In this document: positions 23,883-27,674 of the stretch, one piece after another
How the letters are laid out: the number at the start of each line of letters is the position of its first letter
How positions within the stretch are numbered: position 1 is the stretch's first letter
Assembly (NCBI RefSeq): GCF_965212185.1
Contig: NZ_OZ243102.1
Location: forward strand, 2,741,171-2,805,170
Reading direction: 5' to 3'
DNA: 64,000 bases
From: Ekhidna sp.
Lineage (GTDB): Bacteria > Bacteroidota > Bacteroidia > Cytophagales > Cyclobacteriaceae
Made by a program: the position numbers and the translations under genes
Notes under the pieces: generated by a model
The model's database searches: none
The model's input: only the letters and a program-made list of their open reading frames with translations
What the model was told of the DNA's origin: nothing

Positions 23883-23895
23883 CATGAAGCAAACG

Positions 23896-23917
23896 ATTCC
23901 TTGCGGGAATGATTTTT
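23896..23917 (+). terminator. Intrinsic terminator (ATTCCTTGCGGGAAT followed by GATTTTT) after the membrane-protein gene.
   Basis: Hairpin plus T run seen directly. Confidence 0.45.
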
Positions 23918-23980
23918 AAGAGATTCTGTGATTAATAATCATCAAGGACTGCTCATAGAAATCTTTTGGAAGTAATCAAT

Positions 23981-24030
23981 CTGACCAATAGTGCTTCCTG
24001 AGTCTGGTCTTAGCGTCTCGTTAAGATCGC
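23981..24030. repeat. Composite repeat: GACCAATAGTGCTTCC motif followed by a degenerate copy of the GGTCTTAGCG...CGCTAAGACC palindrome.
   Basis: Seen directly; related copies at 24333-24355 and 24517-24539, and GACCAATAGAGCTTCC at 24567-24582. Confidence 0.5.
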
Positions 24031-24332
24031 TAATCCAAAAACATCAAATCAACCCTTTCTCGCCACAATAATCTTTGCACTGTGCTATAACCATTCACGC
24101 GGCTCATCCACGAAACCTGCCACCACAGGAAACCAACAATCCTTTCTCTTTTTGACAATATTTTAGACTGTCGATGAAATACCCTTGTATTCATTTCTAA
24201 TAAATACATCAATCCAATGAATGACTGTAAATGTTACAAAATTGAATTTATCCTGATGCCGGATGGTATATTTTCTACCCATACTATCACAACTGATATA
24301 TAACTACATTTCTGGAAATACCTATAAGGTTT

Positions 24333-24355
24333 GGTCTCAGCGAGACGCTAAGACG
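24333..24355. repeat. Palindromic element GGTCTCAGCGAGACGCTAAGACG (copy 2).
   Basis: 10-3-10 inverted repeat with one mismatch. Confidence 0.55.
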
Positions 24356-24516
24356 AGAGAAGTCTATTCAGATTCCCAAGTCTCATTCGTACCTCATTCG
24401 CAAGGGAATAGGGATTGGGGTTATGCCGTATTCCCTTGGGAGGACAATTTTAAATTGTCCGAGTCATGGGAATCTCAGGTCCTTAGCTGATAAGCAACTT
24501 TGGTGATGTTGGGTTT

Positions 24517-24539
24517 GGTCTTAGCGAGACGCTAAGACC
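24517..24539. repeat. Perfect palindrome GGTCTTAGCG-AGA-CGCTAAGACC (copy 3), immediately downstream of the SRPBCC gene.
   Basis: Perfect 10-bp arms seen directly. Confidence 0.6.
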
Positions 24540-24563
24540 AATGAAGATTTCGAAGTATAACGA

Positions 24564-25037
24564 TCAGACCAATAGAGCTTCCAACTGATTACAAGCCAGC
24601 TCCCATCCTTCGGCCATGCCCATCTCGGCCATTTGTTTAAGGGCCTCTGCTGAAGCAAATGTGGTAATGGATGTAACGGTGGTCGATGATCCGTTTGAGT
24701 CAAATTTCACTGACATTTGCATCGGTGGAATTCCCGTTGATGCATTGCCATCCTCATCCACAAAATAGTCTTCCGCTTCCAGTCGCTTATGCTGCTCTAT
24801 TTTCAGATAGTCCATGCGCCCTCGATGCACATCCCCTTCCGGTCCTACCATGTTATAAATCCAGTAGCCACCTTCCTTAAAATCCATTTCATCTATTTTG
24901 CAAGTGTATGGTTGTGGTGCCCACCACTGGCATAGGATTGCAGGATCGCTCCATACTTTTTCTACGGGTGCATCAAAGGTGCGCACGGCAATCAACCGGT
25001 TATTTTCCAGGTCTTCGGTGAATGTAGTTTTGTTCAT
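24564..25037 (-). CDS. SRPBCC-superfamily protein (Aha1/activator-of-Hsp90-ATPase-like or polyketide-cyclase-like), 157 aa.
   Basis: ORF track; typical ArsR-partner SRPBCC sequence (VEKVWSDPAILCQWWAP...); 13-nt gap from the upstream ArsR gene. Confidence 0.75.
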   Translation of the reverse strand: MNKTTFTEDLENNRLIAVRTFDAPVEKVWSDPAILCQWWAPQPYTCKIDEMDFKEGGYWIYNMVGPEGDVHRGRMDYLKIEQHKRLEAEDYFVDEDGNASTGIPPMQMSVKFDSNGSSTTVTSITTFASAEALKQMAEMGMAEGWELACNQLEALLV

Positions 25038-25049
25038 TGTTGTAGGTGT

Positions 25050-25364
25050 TTATTTCATATTTTTTAATAGGTCATCCAATTGATCAAATCGATCTCGCCA
25101 GAGCTGCTTAAAAGGCTCCAGCCATTCGATGATCTCCAATAGTTTTTCAGGTTTAATGTGACAGTATCGTTCCCTTCCTTCTTTGGAGATAGAAATCATG
25201 TCACACTCCTCCAGCACTTTCACATGCAATGAAACCCCCTGACGTGAGATTGAAAACTGCTCTGCAAGCGCATTCAGATTCTTCGGTTTTTCAATAAGAG
25301 CAGTTAGAATCTCACGACGAGTGGGATCGGCAATGGCTTGAAAAATATCTCTACGTTGCTCCAT
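25050..25364 (-). CDS. ArsR/SmtB-family winged-helix transcriptional regulator. The ATG at 25364 is likely the start, because the ORF-track start at 25373 is a TTG.
   Basis: HTH signature DPTRREILTALIEKPKNLNALAEQFSISRQGVSLHVKVLEE. Confidence 0.85.
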   Translation of the reverse strand: MEQRRDIFQAIADPTRREILTALIEKPKNLNALAEQFSISRQGVSLHVKVLEECDMISISKEGRERYCHIKPEKLLEIIEWLEPFKQLWRDRFDQLDDLLKNMK

Positions 25365-25374
25365 AATATGCAAG

Positions 25375-25420
25375 TAAGTGCTTGCAAATATATACGCAAG
25401 TGTTTACTTGCGCAATATTT
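25375..25420. promoter_or_regulatory. Two imperfect palindromes (GCAAGTAAGTGCTTGC and CGCAAGTGTTTACTTGCG) immediately upstream of the ArsR gene; a candidate autoregulatory operator.
   Basis: Inverted repeats seen directly. ArsR/SmtB proteins typically bind 12-2-12-type inverted repeats overlapping their own promoter. Confidence 0.35.
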
Positions 25421-25514
25421 TGTCAATAAAACCTTAGAACAGTATTATGAAATGTGAATGAAAAAGTAAGGACATAAAAAAACCATCAACTAAGATGGCA
25501 TCAGTCAATTATCT

Positions 25515-25722
25515 GTCCTGTCGCTGCAGGCTGAGAATTAGCACCAATTATCACACGCTGGTGATCTGGTTGCCAAGGCTGCATGGGGCCCAGTCCCTTC
25601 ACCTTTCCTGATAATTACATTAAAAGTACACATGCAGATTGTAAATAGTTCAAATGCAAATACTTAAATAAGAAATCATAACAATGGATTAATTGTGAGG
25701 CAATGTGAATTTGCCTTTTTTC
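25515..25722 (+). ncRNA. Candidate structured RNA: a GC-rich segment (25515-25610) with partial TPP-riboswitch (THI-box)-like primary sequence, followed by an intrinsic terminator at 25698-25722.
   Basis: GGCTGAGAA...TATCAC...GATCTGG...GCCA...GGGG strings resemble E. coli thiM aptamer segments (CUGAGA, GAUCUGG, P5-like CUGG..CCAG). The terminator is AGGCAATGTGAATTTGCCT followed by TTTTTT. No full fold could be verified by hand. Confidence 0.3.
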
Positions 25723-25948
25723 TCAACATAACAACCCCCTAGCCCCCTTTGATAAGGGGGAATTTGACCGGATCAGGCCTGTCTACAGGAAAAGGCTGGT
25801 CAGGCATGACACCACAATTGAACTTCATTGAAAATTATTGTAACTATTTATTCGACAATTACGATTAATATATTAATTTCGGTTTTGTCGAATAAATAAA
25901 CCCTTATGAAGTGACGAAACTGCCTAACTCAAATAAAGGAAAAACAAT

Positions 25949-27628
25949 ATGAGAAAAATTCCATTCATTCTGTTACTTATCGCGTCCTCCATTTTCACCG
26001 CATGTGGACAAACTCCATCTAACTTAATACCTGGTTTTGTACCGCATAAAGGCATCTCTACACCCATGCATCAAGCGCATGTTGGTCGAATCGTATTTAT
26101 GTCAAATACGCGTCCACTTAAAGACTGTAGTGAAAGTGATTTTCTATCCTCTTTTGAGATAAATGAAAGTTGCGATTTAAATTTCACTGTGTTCATGGGT
26201 AATTCTCTGACTAATTACCTGCATGAATTAGACACTACATTAACTGCTGAAGAACTAATACAAAAAGGGAATTTCCAGTTTTCATTCATTGTAGATGATA
26301 GCTTATTATATACAGAAAATCTCAATCTAGGTGCAGGGCTTCCGGCTCAAAAAAACGAAAATACAATCCTGCGTAAACCATTTTTAAGTAGCACCAATAT
26401 TGATTCCTGGGGTCGGTTTTTATGGATGCGGTTTTATTATAGAAATGGTGGTGAAGCTGCTTTGGAAACAGGCATTCATACACTTAAAATAGAAATACGC
26501 CCATACCTGAAAAATGGTGAAATTATCGTTGGTGATATTATTGCTGAAGGTGAAATCAACTTAAAAATGGCTGAGTTAGACAAGGTATCAGAAGAGCAAA
26601 TAGCCATTCAGCCAATTAAAGAAAATAGCGGTTGGGAGCTATCAAAAAATGGTTTTGATGAAGAAAAGATTAGGGGGCTCAATGAAAAAATTGCTCAAAA
26701 TAGATTTAAAAACATTACGAGTGTTGTAGTTATCAAGAATGGTAAACTTCTAATTGAAGAGTATTTTAATGGTGCTAGTAGAAACACATTACATGATACA
26801 CGCTCAGTGGGGAAATCATTCGCATCTACCCTGACAGGTATTGCCATTGAAGAAGGACATCTGAAAAATACCGATCAAACACTTAGCGAATTTTATGACC
26901 TCACCCAATTTGCTAATTATTCAACTAAAAAGGATAGTGTAACACTACAAAGCCTCTTAACTATGAGCTCCGGTTTTGACGGTTCCGACAATAAGTTCAA
27001 TTCACCAGGGAGTGAAGATGAAATGCAACTTACCGATAACTGGGTGAAATTCACTTTAGATCTATCCATGGATAACACAAGAAAGGTTGGCGAGGTATGG
27101 GATTATTTCACAGCAGGTGTTTTGGTTCTGGGTGATATTATAGACAAATCTGTCCCGGGAGGATTAGAAAAATATGCAGATGAAAAGCTATTTCAACCTT
27201 TGGATATCTCTAATTATAAATGGTTTTATACTCCACAAAACGTACCGTATACTGGAGGAGGTTTAGAAATGAATTCCTTAGATTTTGCAAAGTATGGCCA
27301 ACTCTATAAAAACAAAGGTGTTTGGAATGGAAGGCATATTTTGTCGTCAGATTGGGCAACTAAGACCATGACCAATTATTTTGAAGGGAAGCCCAATCAA
27401 ACTGCTTATGGCTACTTATTCTGGAATCAGGAATTTTCTGTTGGTGACAAAAAATATGAAGCTTTTTTATGCAGTGGCAATGGAGGAAATAAAATTATTG
27501 TTTTTAAAGATCAGCCTTTGGTTGTTGTTATAACAGCTACAGCTTATGGTCAGCCATATGGTCATTCACAGGTTGATCAAATGTTGGAGAACTTTATTTT
27601 ACCTGCTGTAATCAAAGAGCCAAATTGA
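25949..27628 (+). CDS. Lipoprotein with a C-terminal beta-lactamase-related serine hydrolase domain, 559 aa.
   Basis: Lipobox IFTACGQ; S-x-x-K motif SVGKSFAS inside a beta-lactamase-fold region, with YxN- and KTG-like elements downstream. Confidence 0.65.
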   Translation: MRKIPFILLLIASSIFTACGQTPSNLIPGFVPHKGISTPMHQAHVGRIVFMSNTRPLKDCSESDFLSSFEINESCDLNFTVFMGNSLTNYLHELDTTLTAEELIQKGNFQFSFIVDDSLLYTENLNLGAGLPAQKNENTILRKPFLSSTNIDSWGRFLWMRFYYRNGGEAALETGIHTLKIEIRPYLKNGEIIVGDIIAEGEINLKMAELDKVSEEQIAIQPIKENSGWELSKNGFDEEKIRGLNEKIAQNRFKNITSVVVIKNGKLLIEEYFNGASRNTLHDTRSVGKSFASTLTGIAIEEGHLKNTDQTLSEFYDLTQFANYSTKKDSVTLQSLLTMSSGFDGSDNKFNSPGSEDEMQLTDNWVKFTLDLSMDNTRKVGEVWDYFTAGVLVLGDIIDKSVPGGLEKYADEKLFQPLDISNYKWFYTPQNVPYTGGGLEMNSLDFAKYGQLYKNKGVWNGRHILSSDWATKTMTNYFEGKPNQTAYGYLFWNQEFSVGDKKYEAFLCSGNGGNKIIVFKDQPLVVVITATAYGQPYGHSQVDQMLENFILPAVIKEPN

Positions 27629-27674
27629 AACGGATGATGAATTAAAGACAATTATAGAAACTGAATTAATTGAT

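Follow-up and report, generated by a model that had tools for sequence, protein, structure and literature searches.

A probable decayed REPtron, with a dead transposase gene between inverted palindromes, at the 3' end of an Ekhidna ArsR-SRPBCC operon

TnpA_REP proteins, also known as REP-associated tyrosine transposases (RAYTs), cleave and rejoin repetitive extragenic palindromes (REPs) (PMC6006769). The described group closest to the locus reported here is subclass 2.6 of TnpA_REP (Quentin et al. 2018, PMC6006769), otherwise called RAYT group 5 (Bertels et al. 2017, PMC5581495). Its members have a mean length of 179 residues, carry the motifs NH[LIV]H, WQ, YIH[QN]NP and a C-terminal SS, and are "mostly present in Bacteroidetes"; the genes that encode them are bordered by "atypical secondary structures" without GT[AG]G, copies of which occur elsewhere in the genome (PMC6006769). 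The 16-mers flanking group 5 genes are merely about as frequent as those of insertion sequences (ISs) (PMC5581495). Here we analyse a 600-bp stretch poor in open reading frames (ORFs), located downstream of an ArsR-SRPBCC operon in a 64,000-nucleotide window of the Ekhidna sp. contig NZ_OZ243102.1; all coordinates refer to this window unless another locus is named. The stretch is very probably a decayed REPtron, comprising a RAYT gene flanked by its inverted cognate REPs, with a third REP at the end of the SRPBCC gene (Table 1). By motif comparison, rather than by placement on a reference tree, it appears to be a dead member of subclass 2.6/group 5. The locus itself is an ordinary case of a known kind of element.

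Table 1. Features of the stretch and of the adjoining operon (window positions).
Feature	Position	Strand	Description
REP1	24006-24028	-	GATCTTAACGAGACGCTAAGACC-AG read on the minus strand; two mismatches to the consensus; downstream REP of the RAYT pseudogene
REP2	24333-24355	+	GGTCTCAGCGAGACGCTAAGACG; two mismatches to the perfect copy; upstream REP of the pseudogene; inverted relative to REP1
REP3	24517-24539	+	perfect copy, GGTCTTAGCGAGACGCTAAGACC; 24 nt past the end of the SRPBCC gene's stop; position conserved in L037
RAYT/TnpA_REP (Y1 HUH transposase) pseudogene	24030-24282	-	defined by alignment to intact relatives; lies between REP1 and REP2
Direct repeat 1 (DR1)	23965-23998		truncated, diverged copy of the last five SRPBCC codons, the stop and about 16 nt of 3' untranslated region (UTR); contains GACCAATAGTGCTTCC; ends 7 nt before REP1
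Direct repeat 2 (DR2)	24548-24582		native last five SRPBCC codons and stop (EALLV*) plus 16 nt of 3' UTR; contains GACCAATAGAGCTTCC; same in the L037 orthologue
Long imperfect 3' UTR hairpin (SRPBCC operon)	24367-24477		arms 24370-24384 and 24461-24475 enclose hairpins 24398-24441 and 24442-24460 (GGACAATTTTAAATTGTCC)
SRPBCC gene	24564-25037	-	ends in EALLV*; part of the ArsR-SRPBCC operon

A search with the 23-mer GGTCTTAGCGAGACGCTAAGACC, allowing up to three mismatches, yields three copies at the locus, against a chance expectation of 0.00 in 64 kb (0 of 100 shuffles). No fourth copy was found in the window even at up to seven mismatches, and self-BLAST of the stretch against the window revealed no second copy of any part of it. 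The loop of REP1 reads TCT on the plus strand, which makes this copy inverted relative to the other two. REP1 and REP2 enclose the pseudogene; REP2 and REP3 are in direct orientation, 161 nt apart, and so do not form a doublet of the REPIN type. REP3 has a stem reaching 12 bp (TTGG...CCAA), folds as a DNA hairpin at -12.6 to -12.9 kcal/mol (z about -8.5 to -8.8) and presents its TCT loop on the SRPBCC transcript strand. All three palindromes had been noticed in an earlier reading made from the letters alone (hereafter, the sequence-only reading) and all are real, except that the first lies at 24006-24028 rather than 24011-24030 and the second has two mismatches rather than one. The separate palindrome GGACAATTTTAAATTGTCC is present at 24442-24460, as that reading had it.

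The 23-mer belongs to a widespread repeat family. In a scan of one genome per species, the pattern GGTCTYAGCGNNNCGCTRAGACC was found in at least 120 loci, where about two chance matches are expected by our own estimate; 117 of the 120 matches listed are from Bacteroidota. Hosts among these matches are Cytophagales (Roseivirga, Ekhidna, Cyclobacteriaceae, Microscillaceae, Fulvivirga, Ohtaekwangia), Sphingobacteriales (many Pedobacter, Desertivirga) and Chitinophagales (Taibaiella, Edaphocola, Flavipsychrobacter), often with several loci per genome (Pedobacter sp. UBA5917 has at least 12 and P. miscanthi RS10 at least seven). At up to four mismatches, the matches listed contain 256 REPs in 135 clusters, 72 of which are single copies, and long ORFs contain only one of 253 REPs, compared with 71% of random positions in the same loci. 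Because it is dispersed and essentially never found inside long ORFs, the 23-mer is a REP by definition, and the guess of the sequence-only reading that the palindromes are a small repetitive element was correct. Three pattern matches fall outside the phylum (L012, L060 and L090, from Caulobacteraceae, Bacilli and Spongiactinospora); this is roughly the number expected by chance from the estimate above, and they were not counted as members of the family. Dense arrays of four to six REPs with repeated spacers of about 150-180 nt occur at L058 (2724-3205), L046 (5545-6146) and L048 (190-1365), and look like local tandem amplification of REP-plus-spacer units.

The alternative guess made from the letters was an operator array for a transcription factor, for which the neighbouring ArsR-family regulator would be one candidate. 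A 10-3-10 palindrome does have the typical shape of a site for a dimeric regulator, and there are three copies within 540 bp. However, the sites lie downstream of the operon and not at its promoter, the ArsR gene has a palindromic region of its own upstream of its start (approximately 25375-25420), and a simple scan of the stretch found no sigma-70-like promoter. Moreover, the identical 23-mer is found beside unrelated genes in more than 100 loci of three Bacteroidota classes and flanks RAYT genes in a fixed geometry. We therefore reject the operator array, to which we assign a negligible probability.

The region between REP1 and REP2 contains the remains of a gene. The block 24131-24283 is 70-78% conserved in many of the fetched loci (BLAST), adjoins REPs in the loci examined and shows a protein-coding substitution pattern across 18 loci. 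It ends in ...TTTCTACCCAT (CCCAT), which reads ATG GGT AGA AA on the minus strand. When the protein encoded at L086 (Ekhidna sp. B1-GNL1-04) was compared with the window by tblastn, residues 1-35 matched at 74% and residues 36-53 at 83% identity, in two frames. Nucleotide alignment to the intact L086 gene places codons 1 to approximately 51 at 24282-24130, with a 1-nt deletion causing a frameshift near 24178. At the junction 24130/24129 there is an internal deletion of about 293 nt, which has taken out approximately residues 52-148 and with them both the HUH (SHxH) and the catalytic tyrosine (YIHxNP) motifs. The C-terminal codons, approximately 149-183, follow at 24129-24033, with several indels in the last 35 or so; the stop codon is TAG at 24032-24030, and REP1 lies only 2 nt beyond it; in L086, too, a REP comes directly after the stop. 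With its frameshifts and the loss of both motifs, the window's RAYT gene is dead.

The only ORFs that had been listed in the stretch do not represent this gene. Both exist as mechanical ORFs, but neither is the real frame; the conserved one is yet another, which is broken and lies on the minus strand. The ORF at 24030-24212 (minus strand) is an out-of-frame read through the pseudogene, and that at 24263-24490 (plus strand) passes in antisense across the start codon of the pseudogene (24280-24282) and across REP2 before it enters the long hairpin; we reject both as genes. The sequence-only reading had held that the region would be coding rather than repeat-derived if the palindromes were absent elsewhere and the small ORFs had conserved homologues. 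This turned out to be a false choice, as the palindromes do occur elsewhere and there are also conserved homologues, which lie outside both of the listed ORFs.

Intact ORFs of 182-184 codons are present in 14 other Bacteroidota loci. Their products begin with MGRKYAIRDQ..FYFVTFTV and follow the pattern MGRKYAIRDQEKFYFVTFTV...SHxHL...FWQQHNHP...YIH[QN]NPV.AGFV...W.YSSA, with His60, Tyr145, His147, Asn149 and Pro150 nearly invariant in the alignment of the 14. The intact homologues pass the NCBIfam model NF047646, "REP-associated tyrosine transposase", whose curated cut-off is 80 bits; the L086 protein reaches 105.3 bits. On Pfam Y1_Tnp (PF01797, "Transposase IS200 like") the L086 protein scores 36.6 bits. 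A profile made from the 14 relatives and the N-terminal fragment of the window copy has as its best relative of known structure E. coli TnpA_REP (PDB 4ER8; E = 2e-6), followed by ISDra2 TnpA. Among the relatives, L064 shows a tandem partial duplication of the 5' part of the RAYT gene plus a REP (1114-1778; period, 387 nt), and L087 contains a second, distant Y1 homologue (2477-2785; 29% identical).

The arrangement of REPs around these genes is nearly constant. In all but one (L046) of 17 RAYT-bearing relative loci, the ATG is preceded at 34-103 nt by the nearest upstream REP, which shows a TCT loop on the sense strand, and the stop is followed at 3-80 nt by the nearest downstream REP, whose loop is AGA. 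The window shares this layout, with the upstream REP 51 nt before the ATG and the downstream REP 2 nt after the stop. Inverted REPs around the gene are the REPtron arrangement known for TnpA_REP genes (PMC6006769). In L072, inverted REP-24 nt-REP doublets, resembling REPINs, stand on both sides of the RAYT gene, and 50 of the 86 adjacent REP pairs among the matches listed are inverted.

The REP1-to-REP3 region is bracketed by a direct repeat. DR1 and DR2 are identical at 29 of 35 aligned positions, with one gap (score 38, compared with a maximum of 27 in 2000 shuffles). The motif GACCAATAGWGCTTCC had been reported as occurring twice, and both occurrences are present, the right one at 24567-24582 as given and the left one at 23983-23998, one position off. 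GACCAATAG is the core of this repeat, in which 35 nt from the 3' end of SRPBCC are duplicated so as to bracket the whole unit; in our interpretation, the duplication arose as a side effect of whatever event brought the REP unit to this place. Similar brackets are found at other loci. In L098, a 44-nt duplication of a host-gene 3' end encloses a REP(-)...REP(+) unit with an intact RAYT gene inside, and the native terminator lies past the right-hand copy; in L061 and its orthologue L114, a 68-nt duplication encloses a REP(-)...REP(+) unit with no gene between the REPs. A tRNA or integrase-type attachment site as the source of the direct repeat was considered and rejected, since the duplicated sequence differs at each locus. 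Direct repeats also flank REP pairs in all four orientations within REP clusters, apparently through local tandem amplification, which weakens the flanking duplications as a specific signature of unit insertion. We do not take the long duplications of host-gene ends as proof that REP units transpose. One idea is that REP-bounded units of this RAYT subclass, with or without the gene, insert whole at the 3' ends of host genes, creating target duplications of 35, 44 or 68 nt and leaving the gene end intact; we consider this unlikely. Were it true, the one-strand wobble and 53:17 orientation bias described below would reflect capture of the unit at a replication fork or transcript end. REPtrons are not known to move as units.

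These duplications bear on a second explanation of the stretch, namely that it is the remnant of a true IS200/IS605-type IS, or of an IS-like RAYT moving as a unit, rather than of a domesticated REPtron. A duplicated target bracketing a REP-bounded unit in the window, in L098 and in L061/L114 resembles unit insertion, two paralogous RAYT copies are present in one genome (L026, 6843-7314, frameshifted; L120, intact), Pfam places the family in Y1_Tnp, and the flanking 16-mers of group 5 have an IS-like frequency (Bertels et al. 2017, PMC5581495). Against this, the L086 protein reaches only 30.6 bits on the NCBIfam IS200/IS605 model NF033573 (cut-off, 55), whereas it passes the RAYT model. Among the matches listed, 72 of the 135 REP clusters consist of a lone REP that lacks a partner within 900 nt, and RAYT sequence of any kind is present in only about 20 of the 120 loci. 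IS200/IS605 elements end in different subterminal hairpins in the same orientation, without inverted repeats and without target duplication, whereas the ends here are inverted; and the occurrence of direct repeats around REP pairs in every orientation deprives the duplications of their value as specific proof of unit transposition. We conclude that an IS remnant is improbable and that the stretch is better described as a decayed REPtron.

The REP family is asymmetric with respect to strand. On the strand with the AGA loop, AG comes next in 133 of 160 copies. At stem positions 6 and 18, the variant C6.A18 occurs in 56 copies and T6.G18 in two, and so a G.T (or G.U) wobble is tolerated solely on the strand 5'-CT-GGTCTTAGCG-TCT-CGCTRAGACC. 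This is not an ascertainment effect, because the search pattern is symmetric at these two positions; expansion of one sub-lineage could add to the asymmetry. The orientation of REPs relative to genes is biased, too. The first REP past a host-gene stop has TCT on the transcript strand in 53 cases and AGA in 17 (p = 2e-5; the loci are not independent). Past RAYT genes, the first REP has AGA in 15 cases and TCT in none.

It could be argued from this asymmetry that the palindromes are primarily elements acting at the RNA level, such as 3' stem-loops, terminators or stabilisers, which are kept by selection on the transcript and have only a secondary link to the transposase. The 56:2 wobble tolerance and the 53:17 preference for the wobble-tolerant TCT orientation behind host genes would fit, as would REP3, which follows the SRPBCC stop in just this orientation. 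The 3' UTR from 24563 to 24356 (minus strand) is also strongly folded as RNA (-65.2 kcal/mol; z = -6.07). However, there is no U-tract after the palindromes and a simple scan of the stretch for intrinsic terminators was empty. Searching the stretch against Rfam, a check that had been proposed in the sequence-only reading, gave nothing at gathering score and only chance matches to eukaryotic snoRNAs and miRNAs at E <= 10, and hence no credible RNA family. The 23 nt are nearly invariant across Cytophagales, Sphingobacteriales and Chitinophagales, and their unpaired AG/CT tag is conserved, which suggests that a protein recognises the sequence and that it is no generic hairpin; an RNA role leaves the fixed inverted geometry around RAYT genes unexplained. 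As for the orientation bias, it fits selection for a 3' RNA stem-loop and lagging-strand targeting by a single-stranded DNA transposase alike. A primary role in RNA is therefore very unlikely in our view.

Several points weigh against interpreting the stretch as a decayed REPtron. The window copy of the gene is too broken to match any protein family model, and it is identified through its alignment to intact relatives. The 64 kb contain only three REPs, all of them at this locus, so that dispersal in the organism's own genome is putative. The foot of the TCT strand reads ...W-CT-GG and the canonical 5' GT[AG]G foot is absent; this absence is a published trait of subclass 2.6 (PMC6006769), and therefore excludes the canonical REP classes, not a RAYT system. 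Enzymatic activity is putative for every member of the subclass. Finally, the 35-nt flanking duplication is at odds with HUH/Y1 chemistry: as far as we know, transposition by these enzymes is not expected to duplicate the target.

By analogy with E. coli TnpA_REP and IS200/IS605 TnpA, a live enzyme encoded elsewhere would bind the REP as a single-stranded hairpin formed by the strand given above, and would cut and rejoin at the hairpin foot, 5' CT(GG), spreading REPs and REP doublets. The one-strand wobble tolerance (56:2) supports such recognition only indirectly. No activity in cis would be left at the window locus, and its REPs would be fossils if the genome holds no other RAYT copy. REP3 and the long hairpin are probably now only 3' stem-loops of the ArsR-SRPBCC transcript.

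The long 3' UTR hairpin does not belong to the REP family, as it has no match in any fetched locus except L037 (Ekhidna sp. OZ245746), where a shorter form of it and REP3 are found at the same place. Homology to L037 stops at about 24367 (approximately position 1400 of L037), 12 nt to the right of REP2, and everything to the left is absent from L037. Taken together with the degraded transposase gene, this bears out the suggestion that the decayed remains of an inserted element lie just downstream of the ArsR-SRPBCC operon. Beyond the break, L037 has a convergent 377-residue gene in place of the pseudogene and a 160-residue gene. Relative to L122 (GCA_028285685), the block 23883-27674 (about 3.8 kb) is an indel, with the REPtron remnant at its left edge; the extra block holds the remnant, the SRPBCC and ArsR genes, a riboswitch and a 559-codon ORF. 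In L122, PadR and MacB/FtsX genes begin 79 nt beyond the 160-residue gene. Both L122 and L123 keep the 160-residue gene, but their intergenic DNA is unalignable, and neither offers a clean empty site for the REPtron. A metagenome scan with the SRPBCC protein gave one match (59% identical), on a contig of only 1.4 kb with no REP downstream, and exact-protein look-ups of two neighbouring genes returned no record. The riboswitch is a complete SAM-I riboswitch (RF00162, 60.5 bits) at 25506-25617 on the minus strand, with a terminator-like hairpin and T-run, within a segment of about 410 bp (25420-25830) that is absent from L037. The next gene on the same strand belongs to the ArsR-SRPBCC operon, so that the riboswitch is not followed by any methionine or cysteine gene; it may be an orphan left by rearrangement.

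What had looked like a 600-bp non-coding gap should thus be annotated as REPs with a dead RAYT gene, and neither of the two small ORFs should be called. The REPs coincide with structural change, given the L037 break 12 nt from REP2 and the edge of the 3.8-kb indel, which would fit REPs marking or promoting points of rearrangement. The wider value of the locus lies in the so far unexplained long duplications of host-gene ends and in its palindrome, which gives the cognate REP of a poorly described Bacteroidetes RAYT subclass a defined consensus and a strand rule. As this consensus is common to Cytophagales, Sphingobacteriales and Chitinophagales, the subclass becomes biochemically testable with a defined substrate.

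How does the locus compare with described systems? The 23-mer GGTCTYAGCG-AGA-CGCTAAGACC-AG was found neither in Table S1 of PMC6006769 nor by a full-text literature search, and a full-text search for the half-palindromes returned only chance matches to primers. With subclass 2.6 the locus shares, through the intact relatives, the motifs [SN]H[AIV]H, FWQQ, YIH[QN]NP and W.YSSA, a length of 182-184 residues, a Bacteroidetes host and REPs without GT[AG]G. The REP listed for Aequorivita in this subclass, GCT[AG]G-CGCGAGCG-TC[TC]-CGCTCGTG, resembles ours in its loop, in the AGCG/CGCT at the apex and in a foot of the CT[AG]G kind. There are also differences: the window copy is a pseudogene, and in place of the structures described as weak and atypical in subclass 2.6 there is a clean stem of 10-12 bp, nearly invariant over three classes.

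E. coli REPs and bacterial interspersed mosaic elements with TnpA_REP, and Pseudomonas REPINs with group 2/3 RAYTs, resemble our system in having an HUH-Y1 gene between inverted extragenic palindromes, and solitary REPs and inverted doublets (as in L072) scattered between genes. They differ from it in having a GTAG rather than a CTGG-like foot and in belonging to another phylum, and REP2 and REP3 of the window are direct and not an inverted doublet. Conservation of the REP sequence far beyond the genus is a further difference, as the REP families in PMC6006769 are specific to each tnpA_REP gene. IS200/IS605 elements and hairpin-ended miniature inverted-repeat transposable elements have in common with the locus the Y1 HUH fold, a strand-specific hairpin and, presumably, its recognition as single-stranded DNA. 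The locus is unlike IS200/IS605 in that its family falls below the cut-off of the NCBIfam model, its ends are inverted copies of one palindrome and there is no tnpB, and unlike both kinds of element in that most copies of its palindrome are bare hairpins.

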